Part shown: positions 28,524 through 37,001 of the stretch, piece by piece
Layout: each line of letters opens with the position of its first letter
How positions within the stretch are numbered: position 1 is the first letter of the stretch
Assembly (NCBI GenBank): GCA_963677745.1
Contig: OY782391.1
Coordinates: 800,001 to 864,000 of the forward strand
Length of the DNA stretch: 64,000 nt
Reading direction: 5' to 3'
From: Candidatus Altimarinota bacterium
GTDB lineage: Bacteria; Patescibacteriota; Gracilibacteria; UBA1369
The notes under the pieces: generated by a model
Databases searched by the model: none
Told to the model about the DNA's origin: nothing
The model's input: the letters and a program-made list of their open reading frames with translations, nothing else
Made by a program: the position numbers and the translations under genes

Positions 28524-29723
28524 ATGTCTGATTTCCCCAAAAAAAGAACAGACGAAAATCCCTGGAGGGCAGGAGCCATTATCCTGACCGAACAGGGTAT
28601 GATTATTGAGAAAGACCGGAAAGATAAACACATCGAGGAAAACTTGCGACAACTGCGCCGTGAGGAGGAAAAACTTACTCCCGAGAAAGCTACCGAGGAG
28701 ACTCTTTATTTTCTGCACCAGGTAATCGAGGATTTTAGCACCGGACGTTACTCTCTTCCTGGAGGAAAATTGGAAGAAGTAGATTATAAAAAAGCCAGGG
28801 CCAGAGGAATTATGGACATGCCCAGAAAAGAGATGACTGAACGGGAATATCGGATGTTTGAGGATGTCGGGCGCGAAGCCGCGATCAGGGAAGTTGGTGA
28901 AGAGCTTGGTTTGAAGATCAATCGGAACTCGGCCAGGAGGGCCAAAGAGATTAACGGCAAAGACCGCAATCATCTTATTTATCTGCTTCATGTGACGGGT
29001 CTTAACCGGAGAATAAGGATTTTCCCTGATGAAATCGAAGGTGTCGGTTTTCTCCAGAGGGATGACGGAATGTCGGTTTTATCGATGGAAGGATGTTATG
29101 TGCAGCATCACTTGATCGAGATAGCCCGTGATTTTATGAATACGAAGGAAGCGCTGAGACTGGCCCGCTCCTATCAATCCGAAATCAGTGTGGACTCCCA
29201 TCTGGTTCAAGACTGGCTGGGGACGCTTGGTAACATCTATGGATTCCGTTATCTGCGGGCCGAGGAGAAGTCCCGGTACAGAATCCCGACGCCGCAAAAG
29301 TTGATTTCGAGTCCGGTTTTTTCCATATTAAGGGTGGATGTGCATAATAACAAAACAAAGCGGGTAATAGTCGATTTTAGAGACCCTCCCAGCTTTACCA
29401 GAGGTAAGAAGTCTGTATTCATTCCCCGTGATGCCGAACCCCCCGAGAAAATCAGCCGCAGAAAAAGACGCAAAAAAAAGTCCCACTGCATGCGGTCGCC
29501 TGTCTTGGACCGGGAGATTCCGGAGCAGTCGGAAATCCTCCGCAAGGAATCACCCGCAATACCCCAAATTGCTCAAGAAGCCCACGCTGGAATATCCACT
29601 GCCTTGACCATTGAATCAACCGGCCCCCGCACCGCTCTTTGGGCCGTGCTGTCAAATGACCGGTCCAATTTCATTTGCACTCCGGACGGCGAAATAAACT
29701 TCAAACCTGACAAAAACGAGTAA
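28524..29723 (+). CDS. NUDIX hydrolase domain protein with insertions
   Basis: LPGGKLE ... AAIREVGEELGL Nudix box split by an insertion. Confidence 0.7.
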   Translation: MSDFPKKRTDENPWRAGAIILTEQGMIIEKDRKDKHIEENLRQLRREEEKLTPEKATEETLYFLHQVIEDFSTGRYSLPGGKLEEVDYKKARARGIMDMPRKEMTEREYRMFEDVGREAAIREVGEELGLKINRNSARRAKEINGKDRNHLIYLLHVTGLNRRIRIFPDEIEGVGFLQRDDGMSVLSMEGCYVQHHLIEIARDFMNTKEALRLARSYQSEISVDSHLVQDWLGTLGNIYGFRYLRAEEKSRYRIPTPQKLISSPVFSILRVDVHNNKTKRVIVDFRDPPSFTRGKKSVFIPRDAEPPEKISRRKRRKKKSHCMRSPVLDREIPEQSEILRKESPAIPQIAQEAHAGISTALTIESTGPRTALWAVLSNDRSNFICTPDGEINFKPDKNE

Positions 29724-29725
29724 AT

Positions 29726-29802
29726 TGGTCGGGGAGCCGGGACTCGAACCCGGGACCTCCTGGTCCCAAACCAGGCGCGCTAGCCAACTGCGCTACACCC
29801 CG
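29726..29802 (-). tRNA. tRNA-Pro (TGG), CCA encoded
   Basis: Reverse complement CGGGGTGTAGCGCAGTTGGCTAGCGCG-CCTGG TTTGGGA CCAGG-AGGTC CCGGGTTCGAGTCCCGG CTCCCCGACCA; 77 nt. Confidence 0.97.
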
Positions 29803-30965: not shown

Positions 30966-31685
30966 TTAGAGTTTTATTTGAGCGCTTTCTGCAGTCACGT
31001 TGTCGAGTTGTCCATAGTTGTCCACCAGTGACGAGGTCTGTCCTCCGGCCACAATTTTATTGGCATTTTCCAGAATTTTCAGAAATTCGTTTTTGTTGAT
31101 TGTTGAATCGGCCTCTTCTTTGGTTATCGTTTCCAGTATGCCATTTTGAACAGCCGTGGCCAGGTAACGGCTATACCACCAGCGGTCGCCGTCAAAGCTG
31201 AAAGCAAACCAGTTGTTCTGGGAAAGGTTTATTTCAAATTTTTCCTTCCAGTCCAGCATCCCGGAAGCCCCCATCGCCAGTTTAAGCGCTTCCACCCTGG
31301 TAATCGGTTGTTCGGGACGGAAAGGACTGTCTTCGGTCTGATAATAGCCCCTCACCAGGTCCAGCTTGGTGGCCAGATTAATTGATTTGTGAAAACGGTA
31401 AGCCGGATAAACATCAGGGTAGAGGATCAGCGGCTTGAACATTATCTTTTCAAAGTTGGTGCGCGATTCAAAGGCAAACAGGCAGGTTTCCAAATCCCGG
31501 TCACATTCATTCAAAAACAAATCGTTATTCTTTTCCAAATCAAAAAACTTCACAGCCAGATCGGTCGCTTCGCCTCTGGAGAGGGAATCGGCGGGAAATG
31601 ACTCGGCATTGCCCGTTCCCGGCCAGCTCAAAAGGGAAAAGAGGGCTGCCGATAAACAAAATGTTAATACGAAAATTTTCCTCAT
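30966..31685 (-). CDS. S-layer homology (SLH) domain protein
   Basis: Signal peptide; YPDV, V.GY, FRPEQPITRVEA and WY..Y...A...GI motifs. Confidence 0.85.
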   Translation of the reverse strand: MRKIFVLTFCLSAALFSLLSWPGTGNAESFPADSLSRGEATDLAVKFFDLEKNNDLFLNECDRDLETCLFAFESRTNFEKIMFKPLILYPDVYPAYRFHKSINLATKLDLVRGYYQTEDSPFRPEQPITRVEALKLAMGASGMLDWKEKFEINLSQNNWFAFSFDGDRWWYSRYLATAVQNGILETITKEEADSTINKNEFLKILENANKIVAGGQTSSLVDNYGQLDNVTAESAQIKL

Positions 31686-31754
31686 TTATTTTTGTTTTGC
31701 CTGCAGATTATAAACAACAAAGTAATTCTTCACAAGTTCACAATAGGGGATTGC

Positions 31755-32101
31755 TGTCCGGCCAAAATCCGTGCAACTGTCGATGGACAGACATGGACAG
31801 GGGAGTCGGCCTGTAGTCTTTTTAAAAAAGCGACTGTCTCCGTTTGTCCAGTGTTGTCGTCTACTGTCCAATAGACAGAAGTAGTCAGAATGAGCTGGGT
31901 TTGTGGCTTGTAATAAAGGTTTGACTATGTAGTGTCTACAGCTGTCTACCCGGGGTGACTACGGGTGTCTACACATGACTATATATATAGTGTAAAAAAC
32001 GGTTAAAACATGCATTGGGATTGGATGTGCCTGTCTATAGACGACTATAGAAGGCGTATGACAAGTGTCTATAGACTTCTATAGACATCTTCAGATGTCC
32101 G
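31755..32101. repeat. Array of about 20 TG(T/A)C(T/C)A-type hexamers, direct and inverted
   Basis: Direct copies at 31845, 31865, 31922, 31933, 31943, 31956, 31966, 31976, 32032, 32066; inverted at 31784, 31794, 31872, 31882, 32082; GTCTATAGAC palindromes at 32033 and 32067; further near-matches. Confidence 0.85.
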
Positions 32102-32150
32102 TAATATAATTATTACGAAATTCCTTTTTTGAATAATTAAACATACTGAA

Positions 32151-32831
32151 ATGCAGGTGATAGACCGCAAACAGGCTGCCGATATGCTCAATGTTTCGAT
32201 CCGTACGGTGGATCGGTATATTCAAAAAGGCGAGCTGGAAAAGGAAGAGGTAAACGGACGTATTTTCATCAGAACCGTCGGGCTCAAGAAACTTCTGGAA
32301 AAGAAGAAATTACAGGAAAGATATCTGGCTGAAATCGAGACCCTTTCCCCTCCTCCCGAAAAGTCCGAAAGTTTCGACCGATCCCCTTCTTCCGAGCGGG
32401 ATGCTGCGATTGAAGCAAATTATACCGACGAGGGCAGTGGATACTATGGCGGCGGGGCTCCGGAGGACGGAAACATTTACAAAAAACTCTATGAAGAGTC
32501 ACAGGAAGAATTAAAGCTCAAACAGGAGCGTCTGGAAGGGGCTAATTACCGTGTCGGACAGCTGGAAGGTCTGCTCAAGGAAACCGTCCCCCTGCTCGAA
32601 TACAAGAAAGCCCTGGCCGAACAGGAGCGACAGCGCGAGGAACTGGAGGATTTACTAAAGACTTTTGAAAAAGACAATGAACTCCTGAGTCAGACCGTCG
32701 AATCCAAAAGCACCGAATTGGTTCAGATCGGAGAAAGGCTGAAAGGGGAGCGTTTCAACAAAAAAATATTTATCATCATCCTGATAATTCTGTTTCTGCT
32801 CCAGCCGTTATGGCTTATTTTTCCTGCGTAA
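32151..32831 (+). CDS. HTH (MerR/excisionase-like) + coiled coil + C-terminal TM protein
   Basis: RKQAADMLNVSIRTVDRYIQKGEL HTH; heptad region at about aa 108-200; TM IFIIILIILFLLQPLWLIF. Confidence 0.88.
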   Translation: MQVIDRKQAADMLNVSIRTVDRYIQKGELEKEEVNGRIFIRTVGLKKLLEKKKLQERYLAEIETLSPPPEKSESFDRSPSSERDAAIEANYTDEGSGYYGGGAPEDGNIYKKLYEESQEELKLKQERLEGANYRVGQLEGLLKETVPLLEYKKALAEQERQREELEDLLKTFEKDNELLSQTVESKSTELVQIGERLKGERFNKKIFIIILIILFLLQPLWLIFPA

Positions 32832-33462
32832 GCGGCTGCAAGTCGAGCTCTTCCTGTTCTGTTACGGAAATGCTGTATTCCGGTTTATATCCTTGTATCC
32901 TGGATACTATGCCTCCGGCCTGTTTGAGTGCTCCGGCCAAAGTTTTCTGATCCCCGATTGCCTCAAATCTGAAAGGGGGACTGAGTATTTCTCCTCCCAG
33001 CAGTATTTGTCCGTTGGGCATGGTGTCGAACCCCAGATTGTCGGGGGTAATTCTGATGTTATTGACACTTACCGCTTCGGCGCCGGCTGAATAAAGTTCA
33101 TTGACCATGTCGGTAAACCACAAAGCTTCCAGTTCCCCGCTGATTTCAATTTTTATTCCCGGGCCTTTGGCTGCCTTTCTGCCGGAAATAATATTATATT
33201 TTTCAATTTCCTTTCTGATATTTTCCAGGGTCTGTTCCTTGTCGCTGCTGGCCGCCAAATCCTTTTGTAATTCCTCGACCTGGTCATTTAAATTCTGATT
33301 GCTCTTTTTGACTATCTGGATTTCCTTGAAAACGCTGATACGGCTTTCTCTGTTGTAATATTCATTGGCCTGGCTGACCGATTTGGACTGAAAGGAAAAA
33401 AGCAGTCCCATCAGGAGCCCCGTGCCCAGCATCACCAAAAGTCTCGGCAGATTTTCTTTCAT
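32815..33462 (-). CDS. DUF881 family protein
   Basis: TM, coiled coil, GPGI.I, VNELYSAGAEAVSVN, PPF..EAIGD. Confidence 0.88.
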   Translation of the reverse strand: MKENLPRLLVMLGTGLLMGLLFSFQSKSVSQANEYYNRESRISVFKEIQIVKKSNQNLNDQVEELQKDLAASSDKEQTLENIRKEIEKYNIISGRKAAKGPGIKIEISGELEALWFTDMVNELYSAGAEAVSVNNIRITPDNLGFDTMPNGQILLGGEILSPPFRFEAIGDQKTLAGALKQAGGIVSRIQGYKPEYSISVTEQEELDLQPLTQEK

Positions 33463-34178
33463 ATTTGCACGTATTTTAAGAGGTAGTCTCCGTCATAGAT
33501 CGGCAGCACGGCCAGATTCATCTTTTCGATTTCAAAACCGACCTGTTTATTCTTGATGCGATTGTAGAGATCGGGATAAGACTGCTGGTCGCTCAGACGG
33601 TTGGCGATCAGTTCCGTGTCGCCTACTACGGTAATCTCGTAAGGTGAAACCACCTTCACTTTGTTGATTAATATCTCGCTGCCCAGGGCATTGACGGTCG
33701 AATTGGGTGTAATGCGCTGCCCGTTGATGCTGATTCCTTCCACCTTGGCGGTTCGCAGCAGGTTAATCAGATCCCGCAGATCGGCGGCATGGATCAGATT
33801 GGCTTCGTTGGAAGCGCTTTTATCGTTGGAATTCTCCCAGAATTTGATGCGGATTCCGCTGCCGCGCAATTTGGTCAATCCCAGCTCCTGCCTCAGTGTT
33901 TCCAGTGTATCGAGTTTGGCCTGGTCGGCAGTCAGCTGCAATTTTGCCTGGTTGTCCTCGATTTTTTTTCGCAGATCGGCAATGGTATTTTTCAGACTGA
34001 CCCGGTCTTCGTCAAAACTGGCCAACAGCTCTTTTTGTGCGTTTATTTCGTCAACAATGAAAGAATTGGCTGCCACCGAACTCTGGAATTGGGCAGCCAG
34101 TAAGACACCTATCAGCACTCCCGCCACCACAAAGCTGACGATCAGGGCATTGAATGATTTAAAGGCTTTCCAGTTCAT
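33459..34178 (-). CDS. DUF881 family protein
   Basis: G.GI.I, IH..DLRDLIN.L, ISINGQR, PYEI..VGD. Confidence 0.88.
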   Translation of the reverse strand: MNWKAFKSFNALIVSFVVAGVLIGVLLAAQFQSSVAANSFIVDEINAQKELLASFDEDRVSLKNTIADLRKKIEDNQAKLQLTADQAKLDTLETLRQELGLTKLRGSGIRIKFWENSNDKSASNEANLIHAADLRDLINLLRTAKVEGISINGQRITPNSTVNALGSEILINKVKVVSPYEITVVGDTELIANRLSDQQSYPDLYNRIKNKQVGFEIEKMNLAVLPIYDGDYLLKYVQI

Positions 34179-34198: not shown

Positions 34199-35623
34199 TC
34201 AGGCGCTTGCCAAATTTCTGACCGAATCTTTAAAAAGTTTTCCCCTTTCCTCAAAATTTTTAAACAGGTTGTAACTGGGGGACGCGCATGACAAAAGGCA
34301 GATGGTTCCGGACGGAGTGACCCGGTAGGCTTCTTTTGCGCAGTCCTGCATCGTCTGGCAATGAATCAGCAGGGGAGCGGGATGGCCGGTTTGCGGGAGG
34401 TTTTTAAGTAAGGTTTTTACCGCTTCCTCAATCTTAAATCCGGTTTCCGGCAGCAGAATCAGATTGGAAATTTTGGATTTGACGATCAGGGCGGCCATGG
34501 CTTCAAAATTATAACCTCTATCCAGGCCCCCGGCGATCAGCGTGCCAACCGGTTTTTCACGGACCAGCGCCTCCATGGCCGCCATGGTGGACTCGGGCGT
34601 GGTGGAAATTGCATCATTGTAAAAAGTAATTCCTTTAAATTGCCCCACCAGTTCCAGCCGGTGCTCCAGCGGGCTGAATTCGGACAGCGCTTTGACCAGC
34701 ACTGCATCATCGATTTTCAGAATTTCGGCTACCCGGATTACGGCCAGCATATTTTCAAGATTATGTCTGCCCTGCAGTTTGATCTGATCCTCGCGGACAA
34801 TAGTTTTTCCGCTTCTTCTGGCTACCAGCAATCCGTTTTCAGTCTCTACGCCGCTCCCGATTTTATCATTGAACGGCAATACGCGGATGTCCCCCTGGAA
34901 AGCGCGTGCATATTTTTCGAAATAATCCCTCAGTCTTTCCTGTGCGGCATTGTAGATCACGGTAAACCCCGGCTGTGGCTGGGCGACCAGTTTCATTTTT
35001 GCTTCAAAATAACTGTCCAGATCGCCGTGATAATCCAGGTGTTCGGGAAAAAAACTGACCAGCACTGCAATTTCCGCCCCTCCCCGAAAATCCTCCAGCT
35101 GATAGCTGGACATCTCAAAAACGTAAGTAATATCCGCTTCATCATTGGCCAGATAATCCAGTGAAGCCTTGCCGATATTACCGATCAGTTCGCTTTTGAT
35201 TCCGGCGGTTTTCAAAAGCTGCCAAATCAGACTGGCCGTGGTGCTTTTTCCTTTTGATCCTGTCACGGCAATCACCCTGCCCTTTTTATATTTGAAAAAA
35301 AGATTGGTGGCGGACTCCATTTTGACACCCGAAAGCTTGGCCTGCTCTATCTGTTTCTGCCGCGGATTGATGCCCGGCGATCTGATTATGGCGTCAAATT
35401 CACGCAGATGTCCCAGATAGCTTTCACCGAAAAAACGGTTTTCCATTTTCACGTCCGCCAATTGTCCCAGTTCCTCGCGCGTCAGTTTTGCAGATTCCTT
35501 CCGGTCGGCTACCCCGATTTCCAGGGCCGGCCATTTATTCTTCATAAAACGCAAAACGGATTGGCCTTCCCGGCCGAATCCCAGTATCAAAATCTTTTTT
35601 CCCGACCAGTCAAAATCATTCAT
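34199..35623 (-). CDS. murD: UDP-MurNAc-L-Ala--glutamate ligase (probably MurD2, L-Glu specific)
   Basis: G.GREG, RSPG, TGSKGKSTT, EMSSYQL, HLDYHG, HRLE, NDAISTTP and GGLDRG motifs; coupled to murL. Confidence 0.93.
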   Translation of the reverse strand: MNDFDWSGKKILILGFGREGQSVLRFMKNKWPALEIGVADRKESAKLTREELGQLADVKMENRFFGESYLGHLREFDAIIRSPGINPRQKQIEQAKLSGVKMESATNLFFKYKKGRVIAVTGSKGKSTTASLIWQLLKTAGIKSELIGNIGKASLDYLANDEADITYVFEMSSYQLEDFRGGAEIAVLVSFFPEHLDYHGDLDSYFEAKMKLVAQPQPGFTVIYNAAQERLRDYFEKYARAFQGDIRVLPFNDKIGSGVETENGLLVARRSGKTIVREDQIKLQGRHNLENMLAVIRVAEILKIDDAVLVKALSEFSPLEHRLELVGQFKGITFYNDAISTTPESTMAAMEALVREKPVGTLIAGGLDRGYNFEAMAALIVKSKISNLILLPETGFKIEEAVKTLLKNLPQTGHPAPLLIHCQTMQDCAKEAYRVTPSGTICLLSCASPSYNLFKNFEERGKLFKDSVRNLASA

Positions 35624-37001
35624 ATTTTTTCAATAATTGCCGGAATTTGGCAGGGATAAATGGGGCCTGCTGCCCGGCCAGAATTTTTTGCCGTTCTTTT
35701 TTCCAGTCTTTTTTTCCCAGTTTGGGCAAAATCTTTTCCCGGAAAAATTTCACCAGCATAGAATCCTCATATTCCTCTTTCTGGCTGATCATCCACATGG
35801 CCAGTTGGCTTTCCTCGGAAGTGCCCACGCATTCAAAAGGCTTGAAATTTTTGACTCCCAACAGTTCCTGCAGCAGCGGCAGCAGATCATGTCTTTCCAG
35901 CAGATTGGAACCGAAAATCAGCATCAGCGTGGCTTTGTCGATAAAAGGCGCCAGAATAATAAATACAAACAGACATTTCGGACAATCGCAGCACCACAGG
36001 GTGGTGGAGCCCGATTTGTGTATTTTAAAATTACCGTTGCAGCTGGTAAAGACGCCGGCATATCTGTCCAGGTTGGGCAGACCGGCAAACATCTCGGCAA
36101 TTTTCAGCTCGTTATAGCCGCGCAGCAGGCTGAAAAATTGCACGCCGGAATGGATGTATTTTTTAACGTATTCCCGGAAATCCGCCTCAAATTCTTCGCT
36201 TTTGGAATACTGATGGTTGATGTCCATTCCGTGAAAGATCAGCTGGCCGCTGTTGGCCGATTTTTCCAGCGACATCACCAGATATTTGTGTCCGTAAACA
36301 ATCGAACAGATTAGCAGCAGAAAAGAAATGTAGCCGGTGATCGGCACATGGCCGTTATAAGCGCCTTCTTCATTCAGTTTGAAGAGCAGGCTGTCCAGCT
36401 GCCTTTCCACCACGATCCTGGGGATTTCCAGCACATGGGCGGTATTGGCGATGGGGGCGGCATTGCGCAGTGAGATCAGGGTCATATCGACGCCCGCTTT
36501 CTTGAGTATTTCGGCTGTCACTATCGAATCCTTGCCGCCCCCAATCGGCACCAGGGCCGACTCATTAAGAGCGGTCCGCGCGGGCTTTGGGCCTTCCGCC
36601 AATCTCGAAACAGGAAAATTAATCAGTCCCCGGAAATCCAGTTTATTCCTGTAAAAAAACTCCCCCAAACCCCGCTCATAAACTTTTTTCCAGAACGACG
36701 CCTGTTCCGAGTCCAGTTCCAGACCGGCCATCTCTCCCGGCAAATAGGTTTTATAATAGCTGATGCCTCCGATGATGTGCAGGGCTGCCACGGCTTTATC
36801 CAGAGCCTTAACCAGTTCCGGCGGAATTACTTTCCAGTCCACCGGCAGCCCCAGTGTCTCCTGGAAAAAAACTTTTTTATCCAGACTGTAATGCAGATCG
36901 ATCAATAATTTGCCTTCGCCGTTCAGACGATAGGCCCATTTTTCAAACCAGAATTTATTGTATGTCTTTTCCGCGGGCACTTTTGACATTTTATTTGCCA
37001 A
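35616..37001 (-). CDS. murL: UDP-MurNAc-L-Ala-L-Glu epimerase MurL
   Basis: SYYK, GLGEFFY.N, GGGKDS, NGHVP, NHQYSKS, FTSCN, WC..CPKC and KPFECVG motifs; overlaps the murD start. Confidence 0.88.
   Translation of the reverse strand: MANKMSKVPAEKTYNKFWFEKWAYRLNGEGKLLIDLHYSLDKKVFFQETLGLPVDWKVIPPELVKALDKAVAALHIIGGISYYKTYLPGEMAGLELDSEQASFWKKVYERGLGEFFYRNKLDFRGLINFPVSRLAEGPKPARTALNESALVPIGGGKDSIVTAEILKKAGVDMTLISLRNAAPIANTAHVLEIPRIVVERQLDSLLFKLNEEGAYNGHVPITGYISFLLLICSIVYGHKYLVMSLEKSANSGQLIFHGMDINHQYSKSEEFEADFREYVKKYIHSGVQFFSLLRGYNELKIAEMFAGLPNLDRYAGVFTSCNGNFKIHKSGSTTLWCCDCPKCLFVFIILAPFIDKATLMLIFGSNLLERHDLLPLLQELLGVKNFKPFECVGTSEESQLAMWMISQKEEYEDSMLVKFFREKILPKLGKKDWKKERQKILAGQQAPFIPAKFRQLLKKYE

Follow-up and report, generated by a model that had tools for sequence, protein, structure and literature searches.

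The locus described here, an array of short repeats and the gene for a small helix-turn-helix (HTH) protein that follows it, lies in a stretch of 64,000 base pairs (bp) from a Candidatus Altimarinota bacterium (assembly GCA_963677745.1, contig OY782391.1), the whole of which is called the window below. The closest described systems are the DNA-to-membrane anchors RacA, RicO, RocS and Par. In the plasmid system pSK1 Par the centromere consists of repeats that lie directly before the par gene, and the sites of RacA are some 25 dispersed, origin-proximal palindromes rich in GC. [quoted passage not shown] The same part of that paper describes the repeats of pSK1 Par as bound by a DNA-binding domain (DBD) similar to that of RocS, and gives Par a probable amphipathic membrane helix. 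RicO of Staphylococcus aureus, with an HTH, a coiled coil and an amphipathic helix, is reported to bridge sites of a specific motif to the membrane (bioRxiv 10.64898/2026.03.06.710092). An earlier note on the window, made from the sequence alone, had held that no analogue possesses a membrane anchor of its own; the C-terminal membrane-binding helices of RocS and RicO, and the probable one of pSK1 Par, contradict this. The protein BldC of Streptomyces forms cooperative head-to-tail multimers on variable numbers of direct repeats, and is compared with RacA and Xis in the part of PMC5859096 that describes it.

Our literature searches found no description of the present HTH protein family in Peregrinibacteria or Candidate Phyla Radiation bacteria. 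We report that the gene and its array are a conserved cis/trans module of these lineages, that the array is probably the docking site of the protein, and that the module offers a concrete and cheaply testable hypothesis of chromosome organisation.

Results

The repeat array

The window comprises bases 800,001-864,000 of a closed genome of 1,335,835 bp (47% G+C, 97.9% complete). The features of the array and of the HTH gene, in window positions, are as follows.

31755-32095, no strand: array of TGTCTA-type half-sites in both orientations, the genome's densest cluster of the motif, with the repeat families D1-D6 and I1-I5 spread over it.
31922-31981, + strand: six same-strand copies of TG(T/A)CTA(C/T), spaced 11, 10, 13, 10 and 10 bp, close to a full turn of the helix (families D2 and D3).
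32032-32087, no strand: palindromes near the promoter (TGTCTATAGAC at 32032; TGTCTATAGACTTCTATAGACA at 32066-32087), covered by the inverted repeats I1, I4 and I5.
32082-32110, + strand: predicted sigma-70-type promoter of the HTH gene, with -35 TAGACA (32082-32087), a spacer of 17 nucleotides (nt) and -10 TATAAT, agreeing with the consensus at 11 of 12 positions.
32151-32345, + strand: winged HTH of the MerR/Xis type and then one helix, residues 1-65 (Pfam HTH_17 and MerR, AlphaFold2, Foldseek).
32346-32465, + strand: variable disordered linker, residues 66-105, with a predicted local distance difference test score (pLDDT) below 50 for residues 69-103 and no motif copies in this genome.
32466-32762, + strand: long helix, predicted coiled coil, residues 106-204, with the invariant block RLEGANYRVGQLE...SVPLL (AlphaFold2, pLDDT 89-98; 3.5-residue periodicity).
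32763-32831, + strand: C-terminal transmembrane (TM) segment, a predicted tail anchor, residues 205-226 and the stop codon, with conserved LLQPLW (Kyte-Doolittle).

The array occupies an intergenic spacer (31686-32150) between the start of a - strand gene at 31685 and that of the + strand HTH gene at 32151, and the spacer indeed measures the 465 bp given in the earlier note. About 20 hexamers had been read there. The strict pattern TG[TA]C[TC]A, counted in the spacer, the window and the whole genome, gives 15 in the spacer (10 on the + strand and 5 on the -), and the figure of 20 is reached only with one-off variants such as TGTCGA and TGTCCG. The background is 2.27 per kb in the window (145 matches) and 1.96 per kb genome-wide (2,617 matches), with about 0.9 expected per 465 bp. 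The runner-up among all 465-bp windows of the genome holds 6 hexamers, and the array is thus unique in genome-wide hexamer density, one of the checks that the earlier note had proposed. The six direct copies were found where they had been read, at 31922, 31933, 31943, 31956, 31966 and 31976, with the same spacing, and so were the palindromes at 32033 and 32067. At these two positions stand the sole 2 exact copies of GTCTATAGAC in the genome; with up to one mismatch allowed, 3 of the 17 genome copies are inside the array and the others are single and scattered. Contigs from 4 runs of 2 studies match the array region exactly, except for A>G at 32093.

Three simpler accounts of the array were rejected. 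Chance or low complexity was ruled out by the genome-wide window scan together with flank controls in relatives. A dispersed regulon of strong sites does not agree with both exact GTCTATAGAC copies lying in the array and the copies with one mismatch elsewhere being single. A known RNA element was not seen either, there being no Rfam match at E<=1 in 31400-32900; the only nearby transfer RNA (tRNA) is a tRNA-Pro at 29726-29802.

Conservation of the array and the gene

Relatives of the HTH gene fall under Candidatus Peregrinibacteria, Peribacteria or Gracilibacteria. A search of 61 relatives recovered the gene in 56, and a sample of 201 genomes from the class in 135, TGA-recoded lineages among them; the protein family comprises 674 representative clusters at E<=1e-3 in a library of 1.84 billion proteins. 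Among the 150 family representatives listed, most have about 130-310 residues (range 101-313), and the profile match mostly reaches to within a few residues of the C-terminus.

For the loci of relatives the core motif TGTC[T/C/G]A was counted in a zone from -400 to +400 around the start codon and in the flanks. Homolog searches gave 59 related loci, in which the motif density was 17.4 per kb near the start codon and 1.28 per kb in the flanks (13.6-fold), with at least 8 sites in 45 of the 59. When loci from named records were added there were 106 unique loci, with 17.0 against 1.40 per kb; at least 8 sites were present in 85 of these and at least 5 in 94. The earlier note had proposed to look for arrays at homologs, and its expectation was confirmed by these 85 loci. 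In most close relatives TGTCTA/TAGACA is the top hexamer upstream, and TGTCGA is preferred in one genus. Arrays are retained at loci that lack a neighbouring SLH gene (e.g. L030, L033-L039).

The geometry seen in the window recurs. Across the 59 loci the distances between same-strand copies cluster at 9-12 bp (mode 11), with further peaks at 22-24, 32-33 and 43-45 bp, and the commonest opposite-strand arrangement is the abutting inverted pair, a 12-bp TGTCTA/TAGACA palindrome (53 pairs at spacing 6); as relatives these loci are not independent, and arrays in frame are biased towards multiples of three. The share of palindromes with at most one mismatch that is found at the locus is 5 of 5 in the relative G033, 4 of 5 in G002, 4 of 7 in G020, 1 of 2 in G241 and 0 of 1 in G214, whose array is built of TGTCGAC-type sites. 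A second cluster in G020, at 39.35 kb, was examined as a candidate and is not an array: its two palindromes lie at the 3' end of an NrdR-like frame, where they encode SVYR.

Array size also differs with the residue at position 3 of the recognition helix. Two of the 106 loci, which have no recognisable helix, were dropped from this comparison; with a hydrophobic residue (n=75) the group medians are 11-17 sites, and with Thr (n=29) the median is 6, kinship being uncorrected. The median share of TGTCGA is 0.38 with Val and 0.20 with Ile in the recognition helix, likewise uncorrected for kinship.

Many draft contigs start in the array or a few hundred bases upstream of the gene (L004, L005, L019, L029, L122, L126, L133, L136, L143, L163, L192), and it therefore seems that the array breaks assemblies. 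At L005:1-424, where the contig starts within the array, the sites have become a tandem repeat with a regular period of about 44 bp (GTCAGTAGACACGGACTGACACAGGTAGACAAATGTC...), and this repeat is duplicated in turn. At L057 (G062:C1:681492-685106) an ssb-like gene stands between two arrays, one of about 16 sites 800-950 bp upstream and one of 9 sites at the HTH promoter.

The array inside the coding sequence

The arrays of many relatives continue into the gene itself: at least 4 sites lie within the first 400 bp of the coding sequence in 34 of the 59 loci. In the clade of the window (L002-L014) the array is entirely upstream, and the first 400 bp of this coding sequence contain 0 core matches. 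Where the array enters the gene, the variable linker reads MSIDK, VDMSID or TSVD because the array motif, ATGTCTATAGACA and similar, encodes it. The codons follow the motif. Of the 52 SID peptides in linkers 35 are encoded as TCTATAGAC, whereas none of the 41 in other parts of these loci is; VD is encoded as GTAGAC in 98 of 205 linker cases and 48 of 473 elsewhere. GTTGAT, the commonest codon pair for VD elsewhere (136/473), is rare in linkers (13/205). This skewed codon choice for SID and VD shows that selection acts on the DNA and not on the peptide. Here a DNA-binding motif sets the codons of a stretch of protein-coding sequence, a clear natural example that can inform ideas on overlapping codes and on the breaks that metagenome assemblies have at such loci.

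The protein

The HTH gene (32151-32831) has a product of 226 residues. Pfam finds HTH_17 in residues 7-52 (E 1.4e-6, above the cut-off) and MerR in residues 7-30. The AlphaFold2 model, built on a 35-sequence alignment (mean pLDDT 81), has a strand at 3-5, helices at 6-13 and 17-26, a beta hairpin at 31-41, a helix at 42-65, disorder at 69-103 and one helix at 106-223. Hydrophobic periodicity in residues 106-200 peaks at 3.5 residues, and a homodimer prediction for residues 105-226 scored 0.40, the mark being 0.42. The TM segment consists of 21 hydrophobic residues, with a 19-residue Kyte-Doolittle mean of 2.98 at 206-224, KGERFNKK before it and 2 residues after it. We consider the protein tail-anchored, with the wHTH, the linker and the long helix on the cytoplasmic side, because the last 21 residues are strongly hydrophobic, basic residues precede them and only 2 residues follow. 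Pfam, AlphaFold2 and Kyte-Doolittle analyses thus reproduce the architecture that had been read from the translation, i.e. an HTH, a long helix predicted to form a coiled coil and a C-terminal TM segment.

Invariant residues occur in all three parts: R6, R18, T19, D21, R22, G36 and R37 in the HTH, E129, A131, N132, Y133, R134, V135, G136, L138 and E139 in the coiled-coil block, and L217, Q218, P219 and W221 in the TM segment. Foldseek matches cover the HTH alone (Xis, RacA, GlnR, BldC, the pSK1 Par DBD and RdfS; TMt 0.6-0.86), and none of them reaches E<=1e-3. In detail, Pukovnik Xis (4j2n) gave TMt 0.82, BldC (6amk) TMt 0.86, the RacA-DNA complex (5i44) prob 1.00 with TMt 0.63, and the pSK1 Par DBD (8csh) TMt 0.70 with 31% identity over 48 columns. 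A profile of 35 family members placed RacA first among PDB sequences, over the HTH only and not significantly (E 0.21). DUF536 does not match the HTH protein at E<=1 and is outside the 25 most frequent of the 96 families matched by the 35 members; an Atlas look-alike cluster named DUF536 scored 0.91 for the HTH protein, which we take as a lead only. The protein has no effector domain, its architecture is HTH-linker-helix-TM and its promoter spacer is 17 nt, which sets it apart from classical MerR regulators with their effector domains and spacers of 19-20 bp.

Promoters and neighbouring genes

The -35 element of the HTH gene, TAGACA, is the last half-site of the array, and L003 shows a like layout (TGGACA-17-TATAAT). 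The proximal site overlaps the -35, and autorepression would therefore be at least a part of the function. The promoter scan also called two - strand promoter-like sites within the array, 32044-32071 and 31978-32006, because TAGACA differs from the -35 consensus by a single letter and CTATAG is similar to a -10 element.

The genes around the module are these.

30966-31735, - strand: divergent gene for a secreted-looking protein with one SLH match (E 1.6e-6), and its promoter-like site TTGTGA-17-TATAAT (31735-31707).
32815-34178, - strand: two convergent DUF881 genes (E 1.8e-21 and 8.4e-31).
34199-35623, - strand: Mur ligase gene, MurD-like (matches to Mur_ligase_M, MurD-like_N and Mur_ligase_C).

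The array begins about 20 bp beyond the -35 of the divergent promoter-like site, and a relative of the SLH-like gene is found upstream in 25 of the 59 loci. The DUF881 and mur neighbours named in the earlier note were both recovered; the two DUF881 genes are downstream in 39 and 35 of the 59 loci, respectively. The 3' ends of the HTH gene and of the first DUF881 gene share 17 bp (32815-32831), and an abutting layout recurs, e.g. at L003. Two open reading frames without a Pfam match at E<=1e-3, 35616-37001 (- strand, 461 amino acids, aa) and 28524-29723 (+ strand, 399 aa), sit among envelope genes (FemAB, PAP2, Mur ligase, YbeY).

Segregation genes

The closed genome gives no match to ParB_N (PF02195), AAA_31 (PF13614), CbiA (PF01656; ParA/MinD type), DivIVA or SMC_hinge. 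SMC_N matches occur in this genome only in frames of 227-971 aa, and FtsK is present as an 829-aa frame at 414 kb. Among the 201 genomes of the class 43 have ParB_N, most matches being in frames of 420-480 aa that are maybe not chromosomal ParB. In the families without an HTH match (f25, f26, f37) ParB_N was found in 24 of 52 genomes, against e.g. 0 of 21 in f28, 0 of 9 in f17 and 2 of 22 in f29. There is thus a loose trend towards a complementary distribution of the HTH gene and ParB across the class.

Discussion

Proposed function

The earlier note had read the locus as a centromere-like site with a self-anchoring binder. The conserved cis/trans pair, the phasing, the uniqueness of the array and the fold of the protein uphold that reading in part, and binding, tethering and partition are what we infer from them. 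By analogy with the described anchors we lean towards a protein that binds its own array, autoregulates and attaches the locus to the membrane. Coiled-coil oligomers would bind the TGTCTATAGACA palindromes as symmetric pairs. On the TGTCTA direct repeats, phased at about 11 bp, the protein may bind head to tail along one helix face, as BldC and Xis do, and could coat several hundred bp. Occupancy of the array would repress the HTH gene, the last half-site being the -35 of its promoter. The C-terminal TM helix would fix each bound protein in the membrane, and with every bound protein so fixed the coated locus would be one membrane-attached point of the chromosome.

A real role in chromosome positioning or segregation is possible, though we hold it doubtful. 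A more specific form of it, which we regard as unlikely, is a self-contained and nucleoside-triphosphatase-free chromosome "kinetochore" in ultrasmall bacteria: the array would lie over its own gene, the HTH of the nascent chain would load in cis, the tail anchor would pin the locus, growth and division would separate the copies, and the linker would have been rewritten by the motif (MSID and VD repeats) so as to accommodate the platform. If it were true, each chromosome copy would have one membrane-fixed handle.

Several observations weigh against binding of the array by the protein and attachment of the locus to the membrane. The locus, at 832 kb, is a single site 599 kb, or 44.8% of the chromosome, from dnaA (233.5 kb). 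Its distance to the closest skew change point is 120 kb, the extremes of the detrended skew being at 711.5 kb and 89.1 kb. Position relative to the GC-skew origin or terminus had been named as a check in the earlier note; the locus is near neither dnaA nor a GC-skew change point, and a single site remote from dnaA contrasts with the origin-proximal multi-site layout of RacA, RicO and ParB. The HTH gene and dnaA are separated by 39-42% of the chromosome in four closed relatives and by roughly 37% in the unclosed genome G062; across ten closed genomes of other lineages the distance ranges from 1 to 49%. Some distant loci, the inspected TGA-recoded deep homologs among them, do without the array: of 6 inspected closely out of 20 distant loci, L061, L066 and L071 have none and L062 has a small operator, while L075 and L077 carry TGTCGA arrays. 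The core function of the family therefore predates the big array and cannot depend on it. Covariation of the motif with the recognition helix, another proposed check, is weak and confounded by ancestry, the difference in array size given above included, because HTH and motif are both nearly invariant, and L015, L054, L056 and L159 carry Thr yet have large arrays. TAGACA itself departs from the -35 consensus in one letter, and more promoter-like sites are called within the array. Finally, the genome encodes two OmpR-type (Trans_reg_C) regulators, at 870.2 kb and 13.3 kb.

Some further observations concern chromosome position. In three closed genomes of family f40, which represent three TGA-recoded genera (G093, G125, G081), the HTH gene is almost opposite dnaA (48.5-49.2%), and in family f29 the distance is 2.6-26.5%. 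The GC skew is one-signed in this genome, G033, G241 and G214. Between 89 and 711 kb the + strand skew of this genome is near -0.13, in the rest of the chromosome near -0.03, and dnaA is at no change point; in sampled stretches G241 was positive in 20 of 20 and G214 between -0.19 and -0.39 in 20 of 20. For another candidate-phyla genome a similar disparity between the strands is named in the title of a paper (PMC7143001).

Other explanations

The strongest rival is plain, if unusually extended, autoregulation: a membrane-held transcription factor with the array as a long operator for its own gene and perhaps for the SLH-like one, and no part in positioning the chromosome. In its favour, the last half-site is the -35 of a promoter agreeing at 11 of 12 positions, the other end of the array lies some 20 bp short of the -35 in the divergent promoter-like site, the locus is a single site near neither dnaA nor a skew change point, and distant homologs have few sites or none. 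However, promoter occlusion would need far fewer than the 15-30 sites over 350-800 bp, which reach as much as 400 bp inside the coding sequence and have codons adapted to them. It would also be a one-target regulator with an invariant TM anchor and coiled-coil block and, since only about 2 residues project beyond the membrane, no evident signal input, and RocS and RicO, studied proteins of the same architecture, are anchors according to PMC11500499 and 10.64898/2026.03.06.710092. We consider autoregulation alone possible but rather unlikely.

It is improbable that another factor, e.g. a response regulator of the OmpR/PhoB type, binds the array and that its adjacency to the HTH gene reflects regulation of that gene. 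The direct repeats 10-11 bp apart would suit this class, which reads direct repeats of about 11 bp, and the two Trans_reg_C proteins are at hand. The abutting TGTCTA/TAGACA palindromes, on the other hand, suit a symmetric HTH dimer and not tandem response regulators, within the genome the motif points to essentially a single target, and the array tracks the HTH gene across families, even into its coding sequence.

Nor do we give much weight to the array being a replication element (origin repeats or iterons) and the protein a factor for attachment of the origin to the membrane or for its control. In closed Peribacter genomes short repeats, which may or may not be the same as the array repeats, are described near a skew-defined origin together with DnaA-box-like sequences, in the available part of PMC4736985. 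AT-rich stretches flank the array in the window, a perfect DnaA box lies inside the L003 array, and the ssb-like gene stands between the two L057 arrays. In this genome, however, no DnaA box with at most one mismatch lies within 2.5 kb of the array and no cluster of boxes exceeds chance, 599 kb separate dnaA from the array, the detrended skew reaches its extremes at 711.5 and 89.1 kb and not at 832 kb, and arrays within coding sequence would be odd for an unwinding region.

A mobile-element remnant, i.e. an excisionase-like protein with attachment-site repeats, would agree with the HTH_17 match, a weak NCBIfam "excisionase family" match and phage Xis as the best fold match, but it is very improbable for a gene found in 56 of 61 relatives, mostly at one locus with conserved ybeY, SLH-like, DUF881 and murD neighbours, with no recombinase among the neighbours examined and with a coiled coil and TM anchor in the AlphaFold2 model.

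Comparison with known systems

Membrane attachment through the array, the reading we prefer, can be set beside the described systems in turn. ParABS differs, as the closed genome gives neither a ParB_N nor a ParA-type ATPase match. The protein has the MerR-type wHTH of the RacA/RicO/RocS family, and a significant sequence match to it is absent (PDB sequences; RocS and RicO were compared by description). At the C-terminus it has a TM helix and no amphipathic helix, and DivIVA has no match in the genome.

RacA of Bacillus subtilis (5i41/5i44) likewise combines a wHTH with a coiled coil, predicted in our case, and binds repeated centromere-like sites. It differs in being specific to sporulation and anchored through DivIVA, whereas the present protein has a TM anchor of its own.

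The likeness to RocS, as described in part of PMC11500499, extends to the N-terminal MerR-type wHTH, the central coiled coil (again predicted here) and the possession of a C-terminal anchor; the RocS host also has no ParA. Unlike RocS, which has an oligomerisation-dependent amphipathic helix and DUF536, our protein ends in a hydrophobic TM segment and has no DUF536. The array at its own gene has no counterpart mentioned for RocS in the available part of that paper.

RicO shares the small HTH as DBD, the coiled coil (predicted here) and the membrane anchor. According to the preprint it needs arginine 18 to bind, and R18 is invariant here, a correspondence by position number alone. The preprint also gives RicO nine ricS sites over about 700 kb around oriC, where the present locus has one dense array at the gene and far from dnaA, and an amphipathic helix in place of the TM segment; the RicO family belongs to Firmicutes.

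BldC and phage Xis have the same small MerR-like wHTH fold (6amk, TMt 0.86; 4j2n, TMt 0.82). They consist of the wHTH alone, and BldC has many chromosomal targets, in contrast to 226 residues with a predicted coiled coil and a TM segment.

The layout is nearest to that of pSK1 par. In both cases a single protein combines a wHTH, with a similar DBD fold, and a coiled coil, predicted for the present protein, and here the repeat array is directly upstream of the gene and ends in its -35. The differences are that Par is borne on a plasmid and has DUF536, while the present gene belongs to the chromosomal core, encodes a TM anchor and has, in relatives, an array that enters the coding sequence. By analogy, then, the module would work like the RacA/RicO/RocS/pSK1-Par class. 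The extension of the array into the coding sequence of its own binder and the tail anchor are new, and the module would extend this class of DNA-to-membrane anchors beyond Firmicutes with a new type of anchor.

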